From assembly GCF_000023205.1 (NCBI RefSeq), contig NC_012803.1:1500001-1532000 (forward strand): a stretch of 32,000 bases of DNA. The letters run 5' to 3'. The notes below the pieces were generated by a model, which was not told where the DNA came from, ran no database searches, and saw only the letters and a program-made list of their open reading frames with translations. The position numbers and the translations under genes are program-made. Position 1 is the first letter of the stretch; every line of letters begins with the position of its first letter. This document shows, piece by piece, positions 20,430-31,651 of this stretch. The DNA is from Micrococcus luteus NCTC 2665 (GTDB lineage: Bacteria > Actinomycetota > Actinomycetes > Actinomycetales > Micrococcaceae).

Positions 20430-21165
20430 CCCACTGCTCCAGCCCCACGGCCACGAGGGCCGCATGCAGCCGCAGGCTGGCCTGCGCGATCTCGCGTGCC
20501 GAGCGGGCCACGCGGGGGCGGGTGCCGGCGTCGCGGCGGGCCTGCAGCGGGGCGACGGCGCGCTCCACCAGGCCCAGTTCGCGGTCGGCCGCGGCCCGCA
20601 GCGGGCGCAGGTGCCGGGGCTCCAGGCCGTGGCCCGCGAGCACGACGGCGGCCCGGGCCACGTCCATCGCGTGGCTCGGGTAGCCGCCGTCGGGATCGAC
20701 GGGCAGGAGCGAGTACTGATCCAGCTCGGCCAGCAGCTCCTCGCCCGCACCGGATTCGGCGGCGAGCTCGGCGCGGGTCCACGACCGGCGGCCCCCGGCG
20801 ACCTCGCGGCCGAGCCGCTCCGCGTCCGAGGACGCCGGGACCGCTGCGGTCCCGGGCATGCCGGTGGGGCGTTCGCCGCGGTCCAGCGCGGCCAGGTGGT
20901 CGGCGATGACCTTGAGCGGCAGGAAGTGGTCGCGCTGCAGCGCGAGGACGAACCGGAGCCGGTCCACGTCCTCGGGCCGGAAGCGCCGGTAGCCGGCGGG
21001 GGTCCGCTCGGGCAGCACGAGGCCGCGGTCCTCCAGGAAGCGCACCTTGGACGCGGTGACGCCGGGGAATTCGGCTTCGAGGGCGGCCACGACCTCGCCG
21101 ATGCCCAGCCGGCCCGCAGGGCGGGCGGTGGGGACGGCGTCGGGGCGCGGGCGCGGATCGGTCAC
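20422..21165 (-). CDS. MerR-family regulator (Rv1828 / corynebacterial FtsR-like)
   Basis: 247 aa. IGEVVAALEAEFPGVTASKVRFLEDRGLVLPERTPAGYRRFRPEDVDRLRFVLALQRDHFLPLKVI. Conserved position directly downstream of garA. Confidence 0.85.
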   Translation of the reverse strand: MTDPRPRPDAVPTARPAGRLGIGEVVAALEAEFPGVTASKVRFLEDRGLVLPERTPAGYRRFRPEDVDRLRFVLALQRDHFLPLKVIADHLAALDRGERPTGMPGTAAVPASSDAERLGREVAGGRRSWTRAELAAESGAGEELLAELDQYSLLPVDPDGGYPSHAMDVARAAVVLAGHGLEPRHLRPLRAAADRELGLVERAVAPLQARRDAGTRPRVARSAREIAQASLRLHAALVAVGLEQWDD

Positions 21166-21177
21166 GAGGATGACGGC

Positions 21178-21603
21178 TCAGCCCCGCGCAGGCCCGGCGT
21201 AGTACGTGAGGCGGTACTTGCCGATCTGCACGTGCATCCCGGAGCGCAGCAGGATCTCGTCCACGCGGTCGTGGTTCACGAAGGTGCCGTTGAGGGAGTT
21301 CAGGTCCACGAGCCGATGGCCGCCGTCCTCGGCCCGGAACTCCGCGTGACGACGGGAGACGGTGACGTCGTCGAGGAGGATGTCCGCGTCCGGGTGGCGC
21401 CCCACGGAGACCACGTCCTCGTCCAGCAGGAAGCGGGCGGACTGGTCCGGGCCCTCGTGGGCGAGCAGCAGCGCGGAACCGGCCGGGAGGGCGCGGATCG
21501 CGTCCGACTCCTCACGGGTGAGGTCCGCCGAGACCAGCGGCGCCAGCTCGGTGAGGTTGATGGCGGAGGTGGACAGGTCCGGTTCACGTCCGGGCTGGTT
21601 CAT
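21178..21603 (-). CDS. garA: FHA-domain regulator GarA/OdhI (inhibitor of 2-oxoglutarate dehydrogenase)
   Basis: ATG 21603, 141 aa. LPAGSALLL..GPDQSARFLLDEDVVSVGRHPDADILLDDVTVSRRHAEFR..LVDLNSLNGTFVN..IQIGKYRLTYYAGP closely parallels OdhI/GarA. Confidence 0.9.
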   Translation of the reverse strand: MNQPGREPDLSTSAINLTELAPLVSADLTREESDAIRALPAGSALLLAHEGPDQSARFLLDEDVVSVGRHPDADILLDDVTVSRRHAEFRAEDGGHRLVDLNSLNGTFVNHDRVDEILLRSGMHVQIGKYRLTYYAGPARG

Positions 21604-21704
21604 GGGGTGCTCCTGTGCGGGGGCCGGCGCCGCGGCGCCGGAGGGAGAGACGAAGGGGACGCCGTCGCCCCGCCAGCCAGCGGCGGGGCGACGGCGGACG
21701 GGGC

Positions 21705-22091
21705 TCAGCTGGTGTGCGAGGCGTAGCCCTCGGCGTCCATGAGGCCCTCGAGCTGGGCCTCGTCCGCGAGGGTGATCTCGAACAGCCAACCGCCCTCGTA
21801 GGGGGCGGAGTTGACCAGGCCGGGCTCGCCGTCGAGCTCGTCGTTGACGGCGGCCACGGTGCCGGAGACCGGGGCGTAGATGTCCGAGACGGACTTCGTG
21901 GACTCGACCTCGCCCACCGCGGTGCCCGCGGTGACCTCGGTGCCGACCTCCGGCAGGTCCACGTACACGACGTCACCCAGCGCATCCTGGGCGAAGTCGG
22001 TGATGCCCACGCGGACCGTGCCGGCGGCACCGGCCTCGGCGATCCACTCGTGCTCGGCGGAGTACTTGAGGCCTTCGGGGATGGAGCTCAT
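21705..22091 (-). CDS. gcvH: Glycine cleavage system protein H
   Basis: 128 aa. YSAEHEWI, with the lipoyl-lysine motif [16 protein letters not shown]. Confidence 0.95.
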
Positions 22092-22176
22092 GGAGTGCGC
22101 GTCCTTTGTGTGGTCGGGAGTGATGACGTCGTCTCGCAGACTACCGAGCGGCGCGTGACTCGCGCCACTGGCGCGC

Positions 22177-23732
<1,556 letters not shown>

Positions 23733-23811
23733 GGGAGTCAGAGCAAACTCCCCGCCCGATGACGCCGATCACATCCGCGGCCCGGGCGGCGTCCGTCCTA
23801 GAGTGGAGGCC

Positions 23812-24333
23812 GTGTCCGCCACCTCCGAGATCGCCCGTGCCCGCTCCCTCATCCGCGTGGTCCCCGACCATCCCAGCCCGGGCGTGGCCTTCCAGGACAT
23901 CACGCCCCTGCTCGCCGACGCCCGCGCTCTGAGGGCGTGCGTCGAGGCCCTGGTGGCGCCGTTCGAGGGGCGCTTCGACCTCGTGGCCGGCCTCGAGGCC
24001 CGCGGGTTCCTGCTCGCCGGGGCGGCCGCCGTCCTGACCGGCACCGGCCTCGTGCCGCTGCGCAAGGCCGGGCGCCTCCCGGCTCCCGCGGCCCGTGCGG
24101 ACTACACGCTGGAGTACGGGACCGCGAGCATCGAGGTCTCCGAGGACCTGCGGGCCGGGTCACGGGTGCTCCTGCTCGACGACGTCCTCGCCACGGGCGG
24201 CACCCTCGCCGCCGGCCGACGGCTCATCGAGGCGCGGGGCGCGGAGGTGGTGGGCGCGGCCTGCCTGCTGGAGCTCACGGCCCTCGGCGGCCGGGCCGTC
24301 GTGCCGGACACGCACGTGCTGTTCGCGGCCTGA
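23812..24333 (+). CDS. apt: Adenine phosphoribosyltransferase
   Basis: GTG 23812, 173 aa. PGVAFQDITPLL, GLEARGFLL, PRPP-binding loop VLLLDDVLATGGT. Confidence 0.9.
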   Translation: MSATSEIARARSLIRVVPDHPSPGVAFQDITPLLADARALRACVEALVAPFEGRFDLVAGLEARGFLLAGAAAVLTGTGLVPLRKAGRLPAPAARADYTLEYGTASIEVSEDLRAGSRVLLLDDVLATGGTLAAGRRLIEARGAEVVGAACLLELTALGGRAVVPDTHVLFAA

Positions 24334-24397
24334 ACCGCCCCGCCTCACCCGATGGGGAGTGGCGGGCCGGGCGGCCCGCCCCGGGTACGACGAAGCC

Positions 24398-24420
24398 GGA
24401 GCCTTGCACTGCAGGGCTCC
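24398..24420 (+). terminator. Possible apt terminator hairpin
   Basis: GGAGCC-ttgcactgcag-GGCTCC followed by GCTTTGG. Confidence 0.35.
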
Positions 24421-24430
24421 GCTTTGGTCG

Positions 24431-24445
24431 ACGTGGTCGGGCTAG
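24431..24445. repeat. Left copy of the 15-bp direct repeat ACGTGGTCGGGCTAG (att-like copy of the tRNA-Pro 3' end)
   Basis: Identical to 31196-31210. The last 1-3 nt overlap the terminus of the IS5-type element. Confidence 0.9.
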
Positions 24446-24953
24446 GGCATGTCTGACAATCGTTTTGACCATGCGAGCACAGCATTCAGGACCACAGCGG
24501 CCCTGTAGATGATCGCGTACTTGTCATACCGGGTCGCCAGGCCCCGCCACTGCTTCAGGTGAGCGTACTGACGCTCGATGACGTTGCGGCCCTTGTAGGC
24601 GTCCGCGTCGAGGCTGACGGGGCGCCCGCCGCGGGCACCGCGCCGTCTGCGGTGGCCCTGCTGGTCGGCCGGTTCGGGGATGACCGCTTTGATCCCACGG
24701 GCACGTAGGTGGGTGCGGATCGCCCGGGAGGAGTACGCCTTATCGCCCAGCACGGCCTCGGGGCGGGTCCGGGGGCCGCCCTACTGGCCGGGTCACGCGC
24801 AGCTGCTCCAGAAGAGGAAGCAGCATCGGGGAGTCCCCTGCCTGGCCGGGGGTGATCAGGCTGACCAGCGGCAGCCCGGTCCCATCGACGAGCTGATGGA
24901 TCTTCGTGCTCAGCCCGCCACGGGAGCGCCCGATGCCGTGATCGGCCGGCTCC
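24442..24953 (-). pseudogene. IS5-family transposase DDE segment, split over two further frames
   Basis: The middle part REEPADHGIGRSRGGLSTKIHQLVDGTGLPLVSLITPGQAGDSPMLLPLLEQLRV is in one frame. The C-terminal part VLGDKAYSSRAIRTHLRARGIKAVIPEP..YKGRNVIERQYAHLKQWRGLATRYDK is in another. The break coincides with the G5 run at 24771-24775. With G4 the text reads ..RPVGRPRTRPEAVLGDKAYSS. Confidence 0.75.
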
Positions 24954-25386
24954 TCACGCGGATTCTTGTAGTTCGATCCATCCCCCTGTGTGGCGGGTGA
25001 TGTTCGTCGCGTGCTGGTGGGCGCGGGCGATCGTGGAGTCCACCGAGACCGACCAATCGATCAGGCCTTCGGCGTCAGCGGCGGCGGTCAGCGTGGCCAG
25101 CACCGTGTCCCAGGTGCCTTTTTCGGCCAAGCGCCGATGCCAGGTCCACACGGTCTGCCAGGGCCCGTAGACCTCGGGCAGATCCCTCCAAGCGATTCCG
25201 CACCGGTACCGGTAGATGATCGCCTCCACCATGGTGCGGGCGTCGGCGAACGGCCTGCCGGCGCGGCCGGTCCGGGTCGGGAGCATGGGGGCGATCAACT
25301 CCCATTGGGCGTCGGAGAGCATCTGGAACCGGGACATGTCCCCAGGGTCTCAGCTGACTCGTGCATCTATTCTCAGACACGCCCTA
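24443..25386 (-). mobile_element. IS5-family (IS427-group-like) insertion sequence, about 0.94 kb, transposase decayed
   Basis: Imperfect terminal IRs TAGGGCATGTCTGACAATCG (24443-24462) and the reverse complement of 25367-25386, TAGGGCGTGTCTGAGAATAG (17/20 match). If the element proper is GGGC..GCCC, it is flanked by a TA/TA duplication. It encloses transposase segments in three frames. Confidence 0.8.
24954..25337 (-). CDS. IS5-family transposase, N-terminal (OrfA / DUF4096-type) segment
   Basis: MSRFQMLSDAQWELIAPMLP..AIIYRYRCGIAWRDLPEVYGPWQTVWTWHRRL..VDSTIARAHQHA. Confidence 0.85.
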   Translation of the reverse strand: MSRFQMLSDAQWELIAPMLPTRTGRAGRPFADARTMVEAIIYRYRCGIAWRDLPEVYGPWQTVWTWHRRLAEKGTWDTVLATLTAAADAEGLIDWSVSVDSTIARAHQHATNITRHTGGWIELQESA

Positions 25387-25438
25387 AGACGTTGCTCAAG
25401 CATGTGCGGCTCTCGCGAGCGGGCTTCCGTGCCGAGTG

Positions 25439-26350
25439 CTACCAGCTCAGGTCGTGACAGCCGTCGCTGCCGGCGCCCTCCACTTGCAAGGTGGCATGGG
25501 CGATACCGTAACGGTCGCGCAGCACCCGGCGCGCGCCGGCAAGCACGGCGCCGTGGTCCGCGCCCTGGTCAGCGACCAGGTGGGCCGTGGCCACGTTCAT
25601 CCCCGACGTCAGGGTCCACAGGTGCAGGTCGTGGACCTCCTCCACCCCCTCGACCGCGTCCAGGTCACCGGTGACGTCCTCCGGGTCCACCCCTTCCGGG
25701 GCGTGCTGGCCCAGCACCGCGATCACCTGCCTGCCCAGAACCACCGCCCGGATGATGACGAAGACCGCGATGAGCGCCGCGACCACGACGTCCCAGATCG
25801 GCTGGCCGGTGAGGATGATCAGCACGCCGGCGACCATGACACCCACCGACCCGGCGGCGTCGGCGATCACCTCGTAGTAGGCGCCCTTGACGTTCAGGCT
25901 GTCCTTGGCCCCGCTGCGCAGCAGCAGCATGGAGATGATGTTGATCACCAGGCCGGCGAAGCCGACCGCGAGCATGGCGCCGGAGGCCACCTCCGGCGCG
26001 TCGCCCAGCCGGCTGATGGCCTCGACCACCACGTACACCCCGACCGCGAGCATCGCCAGCACCGCCAACGCCGAGGCGAACACCTCGGCCCGGTAGGAGC
26101 CATAGGTGCGTGGCCCCGTGGAGTCTGGCCGGCTCGCGATGCGCGTCGCCAGCAGCGCCGCACCCAGCACCACCACATCGGCAGCCATGTGCCCGGCATC
26201 CGACAGCAGCGCCAACGACCCCGACACCAGCCCCGCGACCAGCTCGATCAGGAAGAAGCCCGCCGTCAGGGCGAACGCCCCCGCCAGCCGCCGACGGTAG
26301 CGGCCACCGGCATGCCCGGTCGCCGGGGCATGGCTGTGTCCCGCCCCCAT
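25439..26350 (-). CDS. czcD: Cation diffusion facilitator (CDF) divalent-metal efflux transporter (CzcD/ZitB-like)
   Basis: 303 aa. His-rich N-terminus GHSHAPATGH, TM2 motif LALLSDAGHMAADV, six TM segments, C-terminal cytoplasmic domain HDLHLWTLTSG. Confidence 0.9.
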   Translation of the reverse strand: MGAGHSHAPATGHAGGRYRRRLAGAFALTAGFFLIELVAGLVSGSLALLSDAGHMAADVVVLGAALLATRIASRPDSTGPRTYGSYRAEVFASALAVLAMLAVGVYVVVEAISRLGDAPEVASGAMLAVGFAGLVINIISMLLLRSGAKDSLNVKGAYYEVIADAAGSVGVMVAGVLIILTGQPIWDVVVAALIAVFVIIRAVVLGRQVIAVLGQHAPEGVDPEDVTGDLDAVEGVEEVHDLHLWTLTSGMNVATAHLVADQGADHGAVLAGARRVLRDRYGIAHATLQVEGAGSDGCHDLSW

Positions 26351-26724
26351 CAGCCCTGCCCCTCGTGGCGGGCGTGCTCACGGGAGACGTCCAGCAGCAT
26401 CCGCACATGCCCGTCAGCGAGGCGGTAGTACACCATCCGCCCCTCCCGGCGGCTCTCGACCACCCCAGCGGTACGCAGCACCCGCAGCACCTGGGACACC
26501 GACGCCTCCGCGACATCTACCGACGCCGCCAGGTCACACACGCACAGCTCGCCGGCCTCCAGCAACGCATACAGCGCCCGGGCACGGCGCGGGTCCCCCA
26601 GGAGCTTGAACAGCCCGGCCAACCTGCCGGCCTCGCGCTCGTCGGGGATCCTCTCCCGGGTCAGCGCCACCTTCTCCGGATGGACGGCGGTGACCTGACA
26701 CGAATCCAACGGCGTCACACTCAT
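26350..26724 (-). CDS. ArsR/SmtB-family metalloregulator
   Basis: LFKLLGDPRRARALYALL, ELCVCDLA (alpha3 Cys site), wHTH SVSQVLRVLRTAGVV, and an alpha5-type DGH-x10-HARH tail. The stop shares one nt with the CDF ATG (TGATG). The start could be GTG 26739. Confidence 0.9.
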   Translation of the reverse strand: MSVTPLDSCQVTAVHPEKVALTRERIPDEREAGRLAGLFKLLGDPRRARALYALLEAGELCVCDLAASVDVAEASVSQVLRVLRTAGVVESRREGRMVYYRLADGHVRMLLDVSREHARHEGQG

Positions 26725-26742
26725 GCCACGACCATACACCTA

Positions 26743-26756
26743 TGCAGATATCAGCA
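26743..26756. promoter_or_regulatory. Candidate ArsR operator (imperfect palindrome) in the divergent intergenic region
   Basis: TGCAGATATCAGCA: 6 of 7 pairs are complementary around GATATC. It lies 19 nt upstream of the arsR ATG at 26724 and between the two divergent arsR-type genes. Confidence 0.3.
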
Positions 26757-26802
26757 GCGGGAGCCACACACGAGAGGTCAGCAGGTTCTGTATGGTCAGC
26801 GC

Positions 26803-26930
26803 ATGCTGACTATTGCTTCGCGGCTGGACGTGATGAACCGGCTGGGCCGGGCGATGGCCGACCCGACCCGCTCCCGCATCCTCATGACACTCCTCGAGGG
26901 CCCGAGCTACCCGGCGGTACTCGCCCGCGA
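26803..26930 (+). pseudogene. Truncated second ArsR-family regulator (N-terminal ~43 codons only)
   Basis: MLTIASRLDVMNRLGRAMADPTRSRILMTLLEGPSYPAVLARD, after which the similarity stops abruptly where IS256-family remnant DNA begins. Confidence 0.65.
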
Positions 26931-26935
26931 CCAAG

Positions 26936-27587
26936 GTGTTGTGGGTCATGAGGTTCTTGCCACGAGGCCCGGGCTGAGATGAGACGAGCGGGCCTCTCCC
27001 GCAGGATGGAAGTTCCTACACCACCCACGGCGGTGTGCCCGAAGTCGCAGTGGCCCGCGGTGAAAGCGCTGCTGCACAGCGTCTACACCCAGCCCGACGT
27101 CGAGGCGGTGATCGCCCAGTACGAGCACATGATCGACAGCCTGGCCACCCATCTGCCGGCCGCTGCCGAGCACCTCGAGGGCGCCCGCGATGAGGTGCTC
27201 ACGTTCACGAAGTTCCCGTAAGGAGGTGTGGAAGAAGATCTGGTCGAACAACCCGAACGAACGGCTCAACAAGGAGATCCGGAGACGCACCGACGTCGTC
27301 GGCATCTTCCCCAGCCGAGTCGCGGTGATTAGACTCCTCGGCGCGGTGCTGGCCGAGCAGCACGACGAATGGACCGAATCACGGCGCTACATGAGCCTGG
27401 AATTGCTGACCGCGACCGACACGATGCTCGCCGAAGCAGCCGCGAAAGCCGCGGCTGAACAAGCCGCCCTACAGGTCAGCGACACCATGACCGACGACCC
27501 CGGCCAAGCGGCACTCGCCGCCTGACAACCCACCCGACCACGAGGAACCCGACAAAGCCTCGATACACCACTCAAAAGGACTTGACC
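26936..27587 (+). mobile_element. 5'-truncated IS256-family remnant with its right terminal repeat
   Basis: The right end CGATACACCACTCAAAAGGACTTGACC (27561-27587) has reverse complement GGTCAAGTCCTTTTGAGTGGTGTATCG, which resembles IS256-type termini (AAGTCC..TGTGTA). The left boundary is approximate. Confidence 0.55.
26979..27525 (+). pseudogene. IS256-family (Mutator-type) transposase, C-terminal third only, with a 1-nt frameshift
   Basis: [38 protein letters not shown] then, in the +1 frame, [51 protein letters not shown]. The break is at about 27219. No N-terminal two-thirds is present. Confidence 0.8.
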
Positions 27588-27920
27588 ATGGCTATGCCCG
27601 AGACCGACCTGCTGCGCATCGGCCGCTGGTGCCGTGAACGCGTGCCCGAGCACCTGTGGGATCAGGTGAGAGTAGAAGCCGAGATCGCCGACCGGCACGT
27701 CACGATCATCGAGACGCGGCCGCCGTGGGACGGGCAGGGCGACTGGACGCGGTTCCCGGTCGCGCGCCTGCGATACACCGTCAAGACCGGCCAGTGGAGC
27801 ATCTACTGGTGTGACCGGCACATGAAGTTCCACGAGTACACGAAGAGGCGCCCGACGAAGAACGTCCAGAGTCTGCTCGACTACATCGGCAGCCACCAGG
27901 ATCCGATCTTCTGGGGCTGA
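27588..27920 (+). CDS. DUF3024-like protein of unknown function
   Basis: About 110 aa: RHVTIIETRPPWDGQGDWTRFPVARLRYTVKTGQWSIYWCDRHMKFHEY..LLDYIGSHQDPIFWG matches my memory of the DUF3024 pattern. The ATG at 27588 directly abuts the IS256-remnant terminus (alternative starts TTG 27582, ATG 27594). Codon usage is less GC3-biased than in the core genes. Confidence 0.65.
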   Translation: MAMPETDLLRIGRWCRERVPEHLWDQVRVEAEIADRHVTIIETRPPWDGQGDWTRFPVARLRYTVKTGQWSIYWCDRHMKFHEYTKRRPTKNVQSLLDYIGSHQDPIFWG

Positions 27921-27934
27921 GAGCTCCCACGGCC

Positions 27935-28162
27935 GTGTCGGTACTCACCGCTACGGTCGGGAGTATGAGCGAAGAGCAATGGGATGAAGCGGCCTTCCGC
28001 GCATCGATCCCGGCCGCGCGCGAGAAGGTTGAGTTTGCCGCTAGGTTCTGCGAGATCGGCCCCTCACAGCCCCGCTGGGATAGTCACCGTCCCGTCGTCG
28101 AGTTGATCTTCTATCTCTGCAAGCTCGACTACGACATCAAGGTGCTCCTGCTGCCTTCCTGA
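27935..28162 (+). CDS. Orphan hypothetical ORF (75 aa; possibly from ATG 27965)
   Basis: Open frame in a lower-GC patch that ends 5 nt before the IS3 left IR. No recognisable motif and no convincing RBS. Confidence 0.3.
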   Translation: MSVLTATVGSMSEEQWDEAAFRASIPAAREKVEFAARFCEIGPSQPRWDSHRPVVELIFYLCKLDYDIKVLLLPS

Positions 28163-28221
28163 CCGATTGAAGCGCCCTGGGTTTGTTGGAGGCTCCTGAC
28201 CTTGGAAACGAGGATGGAGTT

Positions 28222-28566
28222 ATGCCGAAAGAGCAGACAGCGGGGAAGCCGACGACGCGTCGGTATTCGCCGGAGGAGAAGGCCGCGGCGGTCCGGATGG
28301 TGCGGACGCTGCGTGCCGAGCTGGGAACCGAGCACGGGACTGTGCAGCGGGTCGCGACGCAGCTCGGATACGGGGTCGAGTCCGTGCGGAGGTGGGTCAA
28401 GCAAGCCGACATCGACGACGGCGTCACCTCTGGCGTGAGCAGCGCTGAGGCGCAGCGGATACGTGAACTGGAGCAGGAGGTCCGGGAGTTGCGACGGGCC
28501 AACGAGGTCCTCAAGCGTGCCGCGTCTTTCTTCGGGGCGGAGCTCGACCGCCACTACCGGAAGTAG
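28222..28566 (+). CDS. IS3-family transposase OrfA (HTH + leucine zipper)
   Basis: MPKEQTAGKPTTRRYSPEEKAAAVRMV..VQRVATQLGYGVESVRRWVKQ..RIRELEQEVRELRRANEVLKRAASFF. AGGATGGAG lies upstream of the ATG. Confidence 0.85.
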   Translation: MPKEQTAGKPTTRRYSPEEKAAAVRMVRTLRAELGTEHGTVQRVATQLGYGVESVRRWVKQADIDDGVTSGVSSAEAQRIRELEQEVRELRRANEVLKRAASFFGAELDRHYRK

Positions 28567-28865
28567 TCGCGTTCATCGACGCGAACAAGGATGACCTGGT
28601 CGACGGTCCCCGGCTCGGAGTCGAGCTCATCTGCACGCTGCTGCAGGTGGCTCCGAGCAGCTACTACGCCGCCAAGACCCGCGCCCCCTCGGCTCGCGCG
28701 GTGCGGGACGAGGAGCTGATCCCGCAGCTGGTCGAGCTCGGGGAGACGAACTACCGCGTCTATGGAATCCGCAAGCTCTGGAAAGCCGCCGGCCGGGCGG
28801 GGATCATGATCGGCCGAGACCAGACCGCTCGGCTGATGCGCGCTGCAGGCATCGAGGGTGCGCGG
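28449..28865 (+). pseudogene. IS3-family transposase OrfB, 5' part (-1 frame), cut by the IS256 insertion
   Basis: -1 frame open from 28449: ..PPLPEVVAFIDANKDDLVDGPRLGVELICTLLQVAPSSYYAAKTR..YGIRKLWKAAGRAGIMIGRDQTARLMRAAGIEGAR, then IS256 IR sequence. Confidence 0.8.
28858..28865. repeat. Target-site duplication GTGCGCGG (left copy) of the IS256-family element
   Basis: Identical 8-mer at 30300-30307, immediately outside both IRs. Confidence 0.9.
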
Positions 28866-30299
28866 GGGCGTGTCAACTTGTCTGTGTAAGCGGGGTGGTC
28901 ACAGGTAGGGGTTGATCCGGTCGGGGTAGGCCGCGGCGAGCTGGGCGAGGGCCTGCTTCCAGTTCGTGACGGCCTGGCCTTCGACGAGCCGGCCCTGGGC
29001 TTTGCGCTGGCCGGCGGGTTTGCCCCGGTCCCGAGCGCGTTCGGCGGCGCGTTTGTCTTCGATGTTGCAGATCGCCAGCCAGAGCAGCTTCACCGCCGCC
29101 TCGGTCGAGGGGAAGTGGCCGCGGTTCTTGGTCACCTTCCGTAGCTGGAAGTTCAGCGACTCGATGCTGTTGGTCGTGTAGATGACCTTGCGGAGCATGG
29201 GTGGGAACTGCAGGAACGGGATGAACCGCTCCCAGGAGTTCGCCCAGGTCGCGGCTGCAGACGGGTACTTCGTGCCGAGCTCGGAGGCCTCGAACTCGGC
29301 CAGCGCCTTCCTCGCGGTCTCTTCGTTGGGGGCGGTGTAGATCGGCTTCAGCGCGGCGGCGACCTTCTTGCGGTCCTGGTAGGCCACGAACCGCATCGCG
29401 GCCCGGATCAGGTGAACCACGCAGGTCTGGACCATCGAGTCCGGCCACGTCGCCTCGATCGCCTCCGGCAGGCCCTTGAGCCCGTCGCAGCACACGATCA
29501 GCACGTCCTGCACGCCCCGGTTGGCGAGATCGGCGCAGACGTGGGCCCAGAACGCCGAGCCCTCGGTGTCCTGGACCCAGATCCCCAGCACGTGCTTGAT
29601 GCCCTCGAGGTCCACGCCGACGGCGATGTAGGCGGCACGGTTGAGGACCTGGCTGTTCTCTCGGATCTTGATCCGGATTGCGTCGAGATAGATCACCGGA
29701 TAGAACTCCTCCAGCGGCCGCGACTGCCACGCCAGGACCTCTTCGCTCACGGCGTCGGTGATGTTGGAGATCGTCTCGTGCGACAGGTCCGTGCCGATCG
29801 TGGAGGCCAGGTGGTGCTGGATGTCCCGGATCGTCATTCCGCCGGCATAGAGGCTGATGATCATGTCATCCAGGCCCCCGAGGCGCCGCTGGCCCTTGGG
29901 CACCAGGCGCGGGGTGAACGACCCGCCCCGGTCTCGCGGGACGTCCAGCTCGATCGGCCCGACCTCGGACTCCACGGTCTTCGGGGTGGTCCCGTTGCGG
30001 GAGTTGGCGTGCTTCGGCGCCTCGCTCGAGCCCTTCTCGTAGCCCAGATGGCTGGTCAGCTCGGCCTGCAGGCCCCGCTCGAGCGCGGCCTTGACCAGCG
30101 CGGGCACGAACCCGCCGTCACCGGTGAGCTCGACGCCGCCCGCGTCGATCTGCGCGAACAGGGCATCAAGCTGCCCTGAGGCTTTCAGCTGCTCGACCAG
30201 GTCCTGGCCCGAGGGCTCGCCTGGGTTCTTCTCGTCGATCATGGTCATGATTCTTACCGTTCCTCTCGGTACGGCTTACACAGACCATCTGACACGCCC
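28866..30299 (-). mobile_element. Intact IS256-family insertion sequence (1434 bp)
   Basis: 26-bp IRs GGGCGTGTCAACTTGTCTGTGTAAGC (28866-28891) and the reverse complement of 30274-30299, GGGCGTGTCAGATGGTCTGTGTAAGC (23/26). Perfect 8-bp TSD. A single 449-aa transposase ORF. Confidence 0.92.
28899..30248 (-). CDS. IS256-family (Mutator-type) transposase
   Basis: 449 aa. LVKAALERGLQAELTSHLGYEK, PRDRGGSFTPRLVPK, IYLDAIRIKIRE, VCCDGLKGLPEAIEATWP, QTCVVHLIR, YTTNSIESLNFQLRKVTKNRGHFPS. Confidence 0.95.
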   Translation of the reverse strand: MTMIDEKNPGEPSGQDLVEQLKASGQLDALFAQIDAGGVELTGDGGFVPALVKAALERGLQAELTSHLGYEKGSSEAPKHANSRNGTTPKTVESEVGPIELDVPRDRGGSFTPRLVPKGQRRLGGLDDMIISLYAGGMTIRDIQHHLASTIGTDLSHETISNITDAVSEEVLAWQSRPLEEFYPVIYLDAIRIKIRENSQVLNRAAYIAVGVDLEGIKHVLGIWVQDTEGSAFWAHVCADLANRGVQDVLIVCCDGLKGLPEAIEATWPDSMVQTCVVHLIRAAMRFVAYQDRKKVAAALKPIYTAPNEETARKALAEFEASELGTKYPSAAATWANSWERFIPFLQFPPMLRKVIYTTNSIESLNFQLRKVTKNRGHFPSTEAAVKLLWLAICNIEDKRAAERARDRGKPAGQRKAQGRLVEGQAVTNWKQALAQLAAAYPDRINPYL

Positions 30300-30307
30300 G
30301 TGCGCGG
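30300..30307. repeat. Target-site duplication GTGCGCGG (right copy)
   Basis: See 28858-28865. Confidence 0.9.
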
Positions 30308-31027
30308 CGGTCGAAGAGGGTCAAGACCACCCGGCCGGACCCGGCCTCGGCGCGGCACCCGGACCTCGTGAAGCGGGAGTTCACCGCGCCTGCCCCGAAC
30401 CGGCTCTGGGTCACCGACCTGGCGTTCGTGCCGACGTGGGCCGGCGTCGCGTACGTCTGCTTCATCGTCGACGCGTTCAGCAGGATGATCGTAGGGTGGC
30501 GGTGCGCGTCACACATGCGCACCGAGATGGTCCTCGACGCGATCGAGATGGCCCGCTGGTCCCGCGGCGCTCGCCACGAGGACCTGCGCTGTCACAGCGA
30601 CGCGGGGTCTCAATTCACCTCCATTCGCTACGGCGAACGCCTCGCCGAGATCGGAGCGACACTGTCGATCGGGACCGTCGGGGACAGTTATGACAACGCC
30701 CTGGCCGAGACCGTGAACGGCTATGACAAGGCCGAGCTCGTCCGCGGACCCGCACGGCCAGGTCCCTGGCGAACGGTCGAGGACCTCGAGCTCGCGACCC
30801 TCGGGTGGGTGTCCTGGCACAACACGCAACGCCTCCACGGCTACCTCGGCGACGTCCCACCCGCCGAGTTCGAGGACACGTTCTATGCTGTCGAAGCCGG
30901 CCGCGAACAGTTGTCGGAATCAAATAGCGCGAGTCTCCATCAGACCCAGGGCGCTTCAGGGCCAACGCTCTGGTCACCGACGAGATCGATTTTGGATCGA
31001 GCCGCTCGGCCACTGAGGACGTTCTGA
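30308..31027 (+). pseudogene. IS3-family transposase OrfB, 3' part (DDE catalytic core)
   Basis: Continues in frame after removing the IS256 and one TSD copy: RSKRVKTTRPDPASARHPDLVKREFTAPAPNRLWVTDL..VDAFSRMIVGW..HSDAGSQFTS..GDSYDNALAETVNG. The frame reads through the IRR and stops 69 nt outside the IS. Confidence 0.8.
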
Positions 31028-31114
31028 ATTCCCGGGGATATAAGTCGAGCCGAACGCCGAACCGTAGGGTCTGTCTCGATCAGTTTGTGCTAAGGAATAT
31101 GTCAGGCACGGAAA

Positions 31115-31153
31115 GAGGCCCAGGCGCTCCCCTCGAGGGAGTACCTGGGCCTC
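31115..31153. terminator. Long nested hairpin 45 nt downstream of the tRNA-Pro 3' end
   Basis: GAGGCCCAGG-cg-CTCCC-ctcga-GGGAG-ta-CCTGGGCCTC. Flanked by TCTTTCC on the minus strand and ATTCCATTTTCCC on the plus strand. Confidence 0.5.
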
Positions 31154-31195
31154 ATTCCATTTTCCCTCGTCAGATGCGGACTCTGACCCGTGGGA

Positions 31196-31210
31196 ACGTG
31201 GTCGGGCTAG
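31196..31210. repeat. Right copy of the 15-bp direct repeat ACGTGGTCGGGCTAG (the genuine tRNA-Pro 3' end plus 3 nt)
   Basis: Identical to 24431-24445. Covers tRNA positions ..C-TAGCCCG-A-CCA on the minus strand. Confidence 0.9.
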
Positions 31211-31275
31211 CGGGATTTGAACCCACGACCTCTTGACCCCCAGTCAAGCGCGCTACCAAGCTGCGCCATAGCCCG
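31199..31275 (-). tRNA. tRNA-Pro (anticodon GGG), CCA encoded
   Basis: Minus strand: CGGGCTA-TG-GCGC-AGCTTGGTA-GCGC-G-CTTGA-CTGGGGG-TCAAG-AGGTC-GTGGG-TTCAAAT-CCCGC-TAGCCCG-A-CCA. Full cloverleaf, 77 nt, U33, G37. Confidence 0.93.
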
Positions 31276-31651
31276 TGGCGAATCGCGGTCATCCGCGCTT
31301 CAGCACCCCACGAGCATACCCCACCCGCACCGCCGGACGCGAATCCGGAGCGGGCCGGCCGGGCCGTCGTCGTCAGGGGCGAACGGCGCGACACTACCGG
31401 AACGTGAACAAGGGGCCCACGTCCTCTTCACAGACGTGAACCCCTCATCCCTTGACCGAGGGCCACCCGACCGAGAGTCCCCCAGCGACCGCGGCCCCGG
31501 CGCACCGGTGGGCCTGGCGGTCTGCACGAACCCTCTCATGACTGAGGGTGCAGTCGTGCACGGGTGAAGCGTAACACGCTGAGCCGCTCCGATCCGCCGT
31601 TCCGGGCGGGTCGAAGAGGCGTGTCGGGGGGCATAGATCCCCGTGGGAGGG

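Follow-up and report, generated by a model that had tools for sequence, protein, structure and literature searches.

A 6.75-kb island at tRNA-Pro(GGG) of Micrococcus luteus NCTC 2665 is very probably the eroded remnant of an integrated element

Within the window, a stretch of 32,000 nucleotides from Micrococcus luteus NCTC 2665, positions 24431-31210 are very probably what remains, in decayed and immobilised form, of an integrative mobilisable or conjugative element that resided at tRNA-Pro(GGG). Its integration is deduced from the anatomy of the region and from comparison with other strains, whereas its decay can in part be read directly and is in part reconstructed. The features of the region are the following (window coordinates, strand):

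23812-24333, + strand: apt, adenine phosphoribosyltransferase, core gene of the left flank (Pfam Pribosyltran)
24397-24421, + strand: apt terminator hairpin CGGAGCC...GGCTCCG (sequence reading), abutting the tRNA 3' end in strain L120
24431-24444, + strand: putative stump of the displaced original tRNA-Pro 3' part, an attR-type remnant in which the ACG flank is followed by 11 tRNA nt
24445-25384, - strand: IS5-family element, 940 bp, inserted at the CTAG of the stump (Pfam)
25439-26350, - strand: CDF (cation diffusion facilitator) metal efflux gene (Pfam Cation_efflux and ZT_dimer)
26350-26739, - strand: ArsR/SmtB-type regulator paired with the CDF gene (Pfam HTH_5)
26800-26933, + strand: second arsR, of which about 43 N-terminal aa remain before the IS481-type end truncates it
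26934-27028, + strand: IS481-family terminal fragment, 95 bp; L115, L109 and L091 have an IS481-type element whose end matches it at 92% identity
27029-27570 (right boundary approximate), + strand: IS256-family 3' remnant, Transposase_mut C-terminus (Pfam)
27588-27920, + strand: DUF3024 gene, conserved tRNA-proximal cargo of the old island (Pfam)
27935-28162, + strand: orphan ORF, 65-75 aa, invariably found with DUF3024 (conserved in strains)
28169-30948, + strand: IS3-family element, interrupted by IS256 (Pfam HTH_21, rve, rve_3)
28866-30299, - strand: intact IS256-family element inside IS3, 449-aa transposase (Pfam Transposase_mut, E = 1.5e-116)
30949-31195, - strand: tRNA-proximal arm including a hairpin at 31115-31153 (L172 alignment; 97-99% conserved in strains)
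31196-31210, + strand: right repeat copy, 3 nt of flank (31196-31198) and the final 12 nt of the functional tRNA (31199-31210)
31199-31275, - strand: intact tRNA-Pro(GGG) (ARAGORN), same sequence as the tRNA of the empty-site strain L120

The sequence ACGTGGTCGGGCTAG is present at 24431-24445 and 31196-31210, exactly where the first-pass annotation had placed it, and these are the only copies in the window when up to two mismatches are allowed. ARAGORN detects one tRNA in the window, tRNA-Pro(GGG), and its coordinates confirm that the right copy consists of the last 12 nt of the tRNA, which end in ...CCCGACCA, and 3 nt downstream. The island thus begins at the 3' end of an intact tRNA gene and carries a direct repeat of the tRNA 3' part, the 14-nt stump, at its far end. 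Because other copies of the IS5-type element begin with GGGCATG after TA, base 24445 (G) is the first base of this element, and the repeat outside the IS is the 14-mer at 24431-24444, as had been suspected of the core before the IS arrived. It had further been argued that a specific 15-mer is expected far less than once by chance in 32 kb. This holds for the specific sequence, as the tRNA-end 14-mer was contained in none of 200 shuffles. It does not hold for repeats of this length, which are common in the window (about 73% G+C): there are 14 exact direct repeats of at least 15 nt and 51 of at least 14 nt, while in first-order Markov shuffles 7.3 different 15-mers and 24 different 14-mers recurred, counted k-mer by k-mer without merging into maximal repeats. 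Repeat counts lie above the shuffle level in the window, and repeat length alone is therefore no evidence. A second exact repeat pair, 24288/31356, likewise brackets the island. What is non-random is that this 14-mer is the 3' end of the tRNA, taken together with the strain comparison. In our reading of the sequences it is this comparison, rather than the 15-mer repeat itself, that settles the question of origin.

Relatives were reached by exact-protein look-ups with apt alleles and with alleles of a 159-aa neighbour. The apt product (173 aa) is identical to the M. luteus NCTC 2665 protein; when it was compared with genome contigs, the matches listed included Microbacterium and other distant genomes at no more than 65% identity, none of them with a tRNA beside apt. 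The empty site anticipated by the first-pass annotation exists in M. luteus GCA_006704135.1 (L120), where the tRNA 3' end directly adjoins the apt terminator, nothing lies between them and the core is present once: the apt stop codon and terminator hairpin are followed by cttagtcgACG, then by TGGTCGGGCTAGCGGG... and the complete tRNA. This was the one empty-site genome among the M. luteus contigs inspected; the outgroup contig L186 carries the tRNA, with apt out of reach on the contig. No fewer than 18 further M. luteus loci, from 16 assemblies and 2 metagenome contigs (L084, L111, L113, L114, L116-118, L177-L185, L150 and L155), hold a 45-nt copy of the tRNA 3' part on the apt side. Its start, CTGGGGG in the anticodon loop, is invariant in the 18 loci, and in most of them the copy is accompanied by the ACG flank. 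The true identity segment would accordingly stretch over 45 tRNA nt (anticodon loop to CCA) and 3 further nt, and the 14/15-mer would be what the IS insertion spared of it. The left copy has the same outer flank as the empty site, GTCGACG, which makes this copy, and not the right one, the original tRNA end of the host. With these refinements to core length and host end, the proposal of site-specific integration into a tRNA 3' end, followed by immobilisation and erosion, is upheld.

A search of relatives for integrase-bearing islands at tRNA-Pro(GGG), another suggestion of the first reading, turned up two kinds. In L172 and L173 a tyrosine integrase gene, the stop codon of which lies 159 bp from the intact tRNA, is followed by HTH_17, AAA_25 and WhiB genes, and the far end matches that of L084, where the order is 181-aa gene, WhiB, 45-nt stump and apt. 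In NCTC 2665 the tRNA-proximal 125 nt (31074-31198) are homologous to the L172 arm between tRNA and integrase: 93 of 130 alignment columns are identical (72%), the first 17 nt (the shared CGT and 14 nt of arm) agree completely, and the hairpin stem differs by one compensatory pair, GAGGCCCAGG/CCTGGGCCTC in the window vs GAGGCCCCGG/CCGGGGCCTC in L172. From this arm homology only, we infer that the recombinase of the window island was a tyrosine integrase. The second kind, in L161-L171, is an element separate from the window island. Its short core (about 12 nt) interrupts the host tRNA, and the element itself supplies a divergent tRNA-Pro(GGG), of the same isotype; in L161 it encodes a VirD4-type (type IV) coupling protein and an SSB.

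The least decayed version of the island itself is found in L179 and L185, where the stump is followed by a TrwC relaxase gene (872 aa), SIR2-STAND, several IS, IS256, DUF3024 and the orphan ORF; the L179 locus ends within the first part of the IS3 transposase gene. Many strains have a truncated relaxase of 463 aa, and in many the part from DUF3024 to the tRNA is 97-99% identical to the window. The site of L143 is occupied in tandem, with an old arm and a 45-nt stump followed by a younger island. We considered whether this arrangement of arm, core and other flank is the attP of a free circular form and rejected this, as IS3 precedes the arm and a different island follows. No free element with the tRNA-derived core was found in the PLSDB plasmids, the INPHARED phages or IMG/VR. 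Cargo at the site in sister strains includes Hachiman, type III restriction-modification, SIR2-STAND and AbiTii. The passages searched in the M. luteus comparative genomics paper PMC7890812 do not describe this locus.

The island measures 6751 bp, of which 4355 bp (64.5%) are IS-derived by the boundaries set here, in keeping with the earlier estimate of about two thirds, and Pfam agrees with the contents as they had been listed. Its non-IS genes are limited to the CDF/ArsR metal-efflux pair, DUF3024 and the orphan ORF, and its G+C content is 64-70%, as against 70-75% in the adjacent left flank (21000-24500). The IS5-family element has the inverted repeats GGGCATGTCTGA/GGGCGTGTCTGA and a transposase in two parts, DUF4096 and DDE_Tnp_1 (Pfam), of which L101 holds an intact 297-aa version. 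Other copies of the element show a TA duplication at YTAR targets; in the window it is preceded by GCTA and followed by TAAG. These flanks are also compatible with simple insertion into an already short stump and, as read here, do not fix the order of truncation. At the same position as the IS256 remnant, other strains have a full 427-aa copy of its transposase. The DUF3024 gene is 97-99% conserved beside the tRNA in many strains; its companion, the orphan ORF, has no Pfam match. The IS3-family element, with inverted repeats TGAAGCGCCCTGGGT, has no visible target duplication (flanks gat and ggg), and an uninterrupted copy exists in L103. The IS256 inside it is bounded by an 8-bp target duplication, GTGCGCGG, at 28858-28865 and 30300-30307, and its copies in other strains are 99.5-100% identical. 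The two IS256-family pieces of the window are different elements with unlike ends.

The history of the left half is less uniform. The nearest match found for the CDF/ArsR pair is a pair on a Kocuria rosea plasmid (77.5% nt identity), and blastn did not find the pair in the other-lineage loci compared; it may never have been part of the integrating element. The arsR fragment matches the ArsR encoded by the conjugative element of L161, which occupies the same tRNA (36/43 aa, 84%; 82.8% nt identity). A relationship between the window CDF and that of the L161 element was considered as well and rejected: the two are unrelated, and the match is limited to the arsR fragment. These observations would suit a mosaic of at least two arrivals, in which one old element supplied the repeat and the DUF3024/arm end and most of the left half came later, the CDF/ArsR pair and the arsR fragment being acquired either by IS-mediated capture or with a second element in tandem. 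Tandem islands do occur at the site, as in L143, and all internal junctions of the window are IS ends. We nevertheless consider this history improbable, as the window contains no second stump or internal attachment site and the arsR fragment, oriented as inside the ICE at this tRNA, could equally be original cargo; it would in any case alter the history of the island and not its nature. Far less probable still is an ancestral origin of the DNA that separates apt from the tRNA, in which case L120 would have become empty by later deletion and the short repeat would have arisen incidentally, not through site-specific integration. The single empty-site genome among the M. luteus contigs inspected and the occupation of nearly all strains speak for this, but a 45-nt direct duplicate of the tRNA from anticodon loop to CCA is the signature of integrase-mediated insertion and already contradicts it, and contents that vary widely among strains, a G+C content below that of the core and live integrase-bearing elements at the same site also stand against it. 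Finally, a chance repeat beside a tRNA gene at which IS elements merely accumulated, for which the 14 long repeats and the other bracketing pair could be cited, is hardly credible, as the repeat corresponds to the tRNA 3' end with single-base precision and its 14-mer is missing from all shuffles, and it is already refuted by the 45-nt length in sister strains and by the exactly one copy in the empty site.

For an integrated element that decayed in place, we propose the following course. In an ancestor of Micrococcus luteus, a tyrosine integrase would have inserted the element with the 3' part of tRNA-Pro(GGG) as its target. Recombination would have taken place inside a segment of 48 nt identical in element and host, which is made up of tRNA positions 33-77 (anticodon loop to CCA) and CGT. 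The copy of this segment that the element brought with it would have restored the functional tRNA at 31199-31275, and the host's original 3' part would have been displaced by roughly the length of the island to its place beside the apt terminator. IS3, 250 bp from the tRNA, occupies the place of the integrase gene of intact relatives; an adjacent deletion, suggested because IS3 has no target duplication, may have taken away int and xis. In the NCTC 2665 lineage the IS5-type element would have inserted into the CTAG of the displaced tRNA piece, and loss of the DNA beyond it would have spared only 14 nt of the stump and eliminated the relaxase end. One arsR gene and another IS256 copy were probably cut short by IS481 and IS256 events, and an IS256 has recently inserted into IS3. 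The presumed survivors are DUF3024 and the orphan ORF as old cargo, the arsR fragment and the lineage-specific CDF/ArsR pair. The island can no longer excise because there is no recombinase, the attR core is truncated and the distal arm is missing.

The loss of integrase and excisionase, already remarked on in the first-pass annotation, is borne out by Pfam analysis of ORFs and by tblastn. No PF00589 integrase was present among the window ORFs submitted to Pfam, and no Xis/excisionase in the window. Two integrases from the same site gave chance-level tblastn matches in the window and none in the tRNA-proximal arm, and neither tblastn nor three-frame translation revealed an integrase remnant in 30949-31100. 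Because the integrase is missing here, though it lies beside the tRNA in intact relatives, we regard the window copy as a remnant and not as a functional island member. Pfam detects no relaxase, coupling protein or mating-pore genes in the window, such as an ICE or mobilisable element would have. Nor is the CDF/ArsR pair arranged as in a composite transposon, being flanked by the IS5-type element on one side and the IS481 fragment on the other. FtsK/SpoIIIE-type Tra, Rep and Pra/Pif domains, which would mark a pSAM2-like AICE, are absent from the window and from the L172 element.

Two further matters concern the site more than the window itself. One is the fate of the stump, which also speaks for the integration reading. 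Three lineages each have it truncated by an IS of another type, at CTAG or no more than a few bases away: IS5-type in NCTC 2665, IS481-type in L109, L115 and L176, and IS3-type in L089-L098, L110 and L112. At this palindrome the IS481-type elements occur in both orientations, and the IS3-type elements lie within a few bases. It is possible, and we say so tentatively, that the apt/tRNA-Pro(GGG) junction is a species-wide M. luteus hotspot for several kinds of element, whose attachment site is repeatedly cut off by IS; CTAG may have been struck independently by IS5-type and IS481-type elements, each strike immobilising an island. The other is the tRNA strategy of L161-L171, a conjugative-type element with its own tRNA, which may be one so far described for mycobacteriophages. 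The window island itself opens no new question: it is an ordinary case of a degenerate tRNA island, and genomic islands of this kind are common and well understood. For the annotation of the M. luteus type strain, a 6.75-kb accessory island is delimited and its origin explained, and more generally the locus shows cleanly how a tRNA-integrated element can be eroded and immobilised by insertion sequences.

Among known systems, the island is like tRNA islands and ICEs with tyrosine integrases in its insertion at the tRNA 3' part, the regenerated tRNA, the direct repeat at the far end, the integrase beside the tRNA in intact relatives and the MOBF/TrwC relaxase in the least decayed version. It also shares with them a strain-variable cargo (metal efflux in the window, defence systems elsewhere), a G+C content below that of the core and presence/absence polymorphism within the species. 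Unlike them, the window copy has lost integrase, excisionase, relaxase and most of attR, and IS DNA makes up two thirds of its length. pSAM2 of Streptomyces ambofaciens, an actinomycete ICE, reportedly integrates into a tRNA-Pro gene as well, with an att identity segment said to run from the anticodon loop through the 3' end over 58 bp, compared with 45+3 nt in M. luteus. The FtsK-like Tra, RepSA, Pra and Pif of pSAM2 were seen in none of the M. luteus tenants, the relatives having instead a TrwC relaxase, a VirD4-type coupling protein or an AAA_25 protein. The tRNA-dependent lysogeny of mycobacteriophages (Guerrero-Bustamante and Hatfull 2024, PMC10865867) resembles L161-L171 only, in which a short core splits the tRNA and the element brings its own tRNA of the same isotype, but that element encodes a type IV coupling protein and an SSB and no phage genes, whereas the window island regenerates its tRNA in the classical way.

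The 15-mer ACGTGGTCGGGCTAG occurs as two exact copies in the whole window, at 24431-24445 and 31196-31210, and thus brackets the island as the first-pass annotation had proposed; no third copy was found in the window when up to two mismatches were allowed. A single tRNA gene was found in the window, that for tRNA-Pro(GGG) at 31199-31275 (minus strand). As had been claimed, the right copy of the repeat consists of its last 12 nt (...CTAGCCCGACCA) and the next 3 nt, which places the island downstream of the tRNA 3' end. The additional claim that a 15-mer of this kind is improbable by chance in 32 kb has to be corrected. Exact direct repeats are common in this window (~73% G+C), with 14 of at least 15 nt and 51 of at least 14 nt, and first-order Markov shuffles contained ~7 repeated 15-mers and 24 repeated 14-mers (unmerged k-mer counts, not maximal repeats). 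The tRNA-end 14-mer was present in 0 of 200 shuffles. A second exact 15-mer pair, CGGCCGGGCCGTCGT, at 24288-24302 (within apt) and 31356-31370 (upstream of the tRNA), brackets the island too, and was put down to chance in G+C-rich DNA. The length of the repeat alone is no evidence; its coincidence with the tRNA end, together with the comparative data, is.

The window's apt product is identical to the one of M. luteus NCTC 2665 / ATCC 4698. For this comparison, loci from dozens of other M. luteus assemblies were found through allelic variants of apt and the 159-aa gene beyond the tRNA (L numbers denote such loci and metagenome contigs). The NCTC 2665 island is also present in LS483396.1 and CP007437.1 (L082, L083). 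In L120 (GCA_006704135.1), the 159-aa gene, a tRNA-Pro(GGG) identical to that of the window and apt are adjacent and there is no island; behind the apt stop, ...gccggagcccgcgctgcgggactccggcttagtcgACG is joined directly to TGGTCGGGCTAGCGGG..., which is followed by the complete tRNA. The predicted empty site, with the apt terminator joined to the tRNA 3' flank and a single copy of the core, is thus present in this strain. The site is polymorphic, including an empty state, the repeat is the 3' part of the tRNA, and the tRNA is intact. Because the outer flank of the left window copy is GTCGACG, as in the empty site, the comparison shows that the left copy is the original chromosomal tRNA end and that the 3' part of the present tRNA is derived from the element.

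A 45-nt copy of the tRNA (TGGTCGGGCTAGCGGGATTTGAACCCACGACCTCTTGACCCCCAG), spanning CCA to the anticodon loop, lies on the apt side in L084, L111, L113, L114, L116-L118 and L177-L185, as well as in two metagenome contigs (L150, L155). The three bases before it are ACG in most loci and ATG in L084, and the copy terminates at one fixed nucleotide regardless of the DNA beyond, so that the identity segment is 45+3 nt. An identical 45-nt stump was seen in a metagenome contig of another taxon (L156:4380-14503, 62% G+C), where it is followed by a homologous flank, an OLD-family ATPase and DruA, with a tyrosine integrase 9 kb away; elements related to these therefore use tRNA-Pro outside Micrococcus as well.

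In other lineages the stump is severed at CTAG or within a few bases of it, by a different IS in each lineage. The junction (slash) reads GGGCTA/GGGCATG in NCTC 2665 (IS5-type), GGGCTAG/CTGT in L109, L115 and L176 (IS481-type, both orientations), and GGGC/TGCTGCG in L089-L098, L110 and L112 (IS3-type). Two other copies of the IS5-type element have the flanks CTTA/../TAG and CCTA/../TAG, which indicate that TA is duplicated at YTAR targets. The stump's CTAG agrees with this target, and IS481 also favours CTAG. IS5-type and IS481-type elements inserted independently at CTAG in different M. luteus lineages, and an IS3-type element lies within a few bases of it; the stump CTAG (window 24442-24445) looks like a hotspot at which insertions truncate the attachment site. 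The right flank of the IS5-type element in the window, TAAGACG, holds no continuation of the tRNA copy; either the DNA beside the element was deleted, or two IS copies recombined. Alternatively, there may have been a simple IS5-type insertion into a stump that was already shortened.

Pfam searches of the submitted ORFs bore out the genes and IS elements that had been listed for the island.

Features of the island (window coordinates; "Pfam" marks assignments from these searches)
24445-25384, minus: IS5-family element, DUF4096 and DDE_Tnp_1 parts, split (Pfam)
25439-26350, minus: CDF metal efflux gene (Pfam)
26350-26739, minus: ArsR regulator (Pfam)
26800-26933, plus: arsR N-terminal fragment
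26934-27028, plus: IS481-type end fragment, 95 bp
27029 to ~27570, plus: IS256-family 3' remnant (Pfam)
27588-27920, plus: DUF3024 gene (Pfam)
27935-28162, plus: orphan ORF
28169-30948, plus: IS3-family element (Pfam)
28866-30299, minus: intact IS256 element within IS3, 8-bp duplication GTGCGCGG (Pfam)
30949-31195, minus: non-coding arm, 247 bp

With these boundaries, 4355 of 6751 bp (64.5%) are IS-derived, in line with the earlier estimate of about two thirds. The insertion of IS256 into IS3 is recent, since it is absent from locus L103. The G+C content of the island (64-70%) is below that of the adjacent left flank (70-75% at 21000-24500). The genes outside the repeats are core genes, as had been stated: mraW, mraZ, dinB, PknB, pyruvate carboxylase, gcvH, a POT transporter and apt were found in the rest of the window. 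Among the window ORFs submitted to Pfam, none had an integrase or excisionase domain, which agrees with the reported absence of both. The transposase of the IS5-type element is split into two ORFs here and is a single 297-aa ORF in CP035298.1 (L101); the copy in the window may therefore be inactive. The POT-family peptide transporter gene adjoining apt (22177-23711, minus) has a 1-nt deletion near 23292 relative to other M. luteus; it is called as pieces of 363 aa and 143 aa, not 511 aa, and the NCTC 2665 gene is probably a pseudogene.

Three kinds of occupant were observed at the tRNA-Pro(GGG) site, two of which (L172/L173 and L161-L171) are the integrase-bearing islands that had been anticipated in relatives. 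The first, in L172/L173, is intact and ~10 kb long. The intact host tRNA is followed by an arm with a hairpin and by a tyrosine integrase gene (447-460 aa) whose stop codon lies 159 bp from the tRNA; a 199-aa gene, HTH_17, a 792-aa AAA_25 gene, three genes, WhiB and a 181-aa gene come after it. In L084 the 181-aa gene and WhiB adjoin the 45-nt stump, and both ends of the L172-type element are therefore known. Two proteins of L172 (13597-20414) resemble small and large terminase subunits weakly and below threshold; the element may be a phage satellite rather than plasmid-like. Homology exists between its first 125 nt past the tRNA and window 31074-31198: 93 of 130 columns match, with identity throughout the first 17 nt (CGTTCCCACGGGTCAGA, made up of the shared CGT and 14 nt of arm), and the one pair that differs in the hairpin stem is compensatory (GAGGCCCAGG/CCTGGGCCTC versus GAGGCCCCGG/CCGGGGCCTC). 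The NCTC 2665 island thus has the integrase-proximal arm of the L172 family; integrase-bearing relatives with a homologous arm exist, and the window is without a recombinase. The homology ends where the int gene would start, and an IS3 without target duplication comes next.

The second kind of occupant is the old island in various states of decay, best preserved in L179 and L185. There the order is apt, 45-nt stump, a gene for an 872-aa TrwC/MOBF relaxase, SIR2-STAND, several IS, IS256, DUF3024 and orphan ORF; the L179 locus ends within the first part of the IS3 transposase gene. Read from the tRNA side in other strains, the part from DUF3024 to the tRNA is 97-99% identical to the window; the old island DNA common across M. 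luteus comprises DUF3024, the orphan ORF and the arm. Cargo in other strains comprises type III restriction-modification with KAP NTPase or DUF6414/AAA genes (L129, L132, L133), and a Na/Ca exchanger or P-type ATPase. Anti-phage cargo among L084, L129, L132, L133, L179 and L185 consists of these type III systems, HamA plus helicase (Hachiman-like) and SIR2-STAND; no Hachiman-like, type III restriction-modification or SIR2-STAND cargo was found in the NCTC 2665 island.

The third kind (L161-L171) is of conjugative type and carries a tyrosine integrase, HTH_17, SSB, a VirD4/TraG coupling protein, CDF, ArsR and an SBF-like transporter. The arsR fragment of the window matches the ArsR of the L161 element in 36 of 43 aa and has the orientation expected within an element integrated at tRNA-Pro(GGG). 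Kinship of the window CDF with that of L161 was considered and rejected, as the two are unrelated. By blastn, the CDF/ArsR pair had no match in any other-lineage locus compared; a Kocuria rosea plasmid carries the best-matching pair (77.5% nucleotide identity). The window pair may be original cargo or may have been acquired later through an IS. In L161:10858-12459 (also L162-L165, L168-L171 and L175) the host tRNA-Pro is not rebuilt, and one element end was recovered: the host gene breaks off after ...CTTGACTGGGGGTCAAGg, and 45 nt further lies the element's own complete, different tRNA-Pro(GGG), CGGGATGTGG...CATCCCGACA.

In metagenome contig L143 (4840-8608; also L146-L148), an IS3 fragment, the 250-bp arm of the window, ACG, the 45-nt stump and a younger island with AbiTii and HEPN genes stand in tandem, which shows repeated use of the site within a single lineage. 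In L111:12022-20522 the stump and a truncated relaxase gene are followed by acyl-CoA carboxylase genes, and in L121:11567-20480 genes found at 7-11 kb in the window come after the tRNA and an IS3 fragment. As the island ends join distant core regions, this suggests an IS-mediated inversion with a breakpoint in the island.

In the history we propose, a tyrosine integrase would have recombined attP and attB inside the 48-nt segment, an IS3-associated deletion would have taken out int and xis, and an IS5-associated deletion the remainder of the stump and the relaxase end. With a 14-nt core and no distal arm, there should be no excision even if integrase were supplied in trans. The observation made in the first-pass annotation is confirmed, and its interpretation is supported and refined.

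The island is a textbook tRNA-integrated island in a terminal state of decay. Lacking the integrase and the relaxase of a functional integrative element, the window copy is a remnant only. No description of it was found in the literature searched, which was of limited reach. Of greater interest are two observations outside the window, namely the recurrent IS insertions at the stump CTAG in sister strains and the conjugative-type element, which splits the host tRNA and supplies one of its own. In pSAM2 of Streptomyces the identity segment spans tRNA-Pro between the anticodon loop and the 3' end. That of M. luteus recalls it, although no pSAM2-type functions were found in the M. luteus material. 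tRNA-dependent lysogeny has been described for mycobacteriophages (PMC10865867); the L161-type element resembles it and differs in being a non-phage element.
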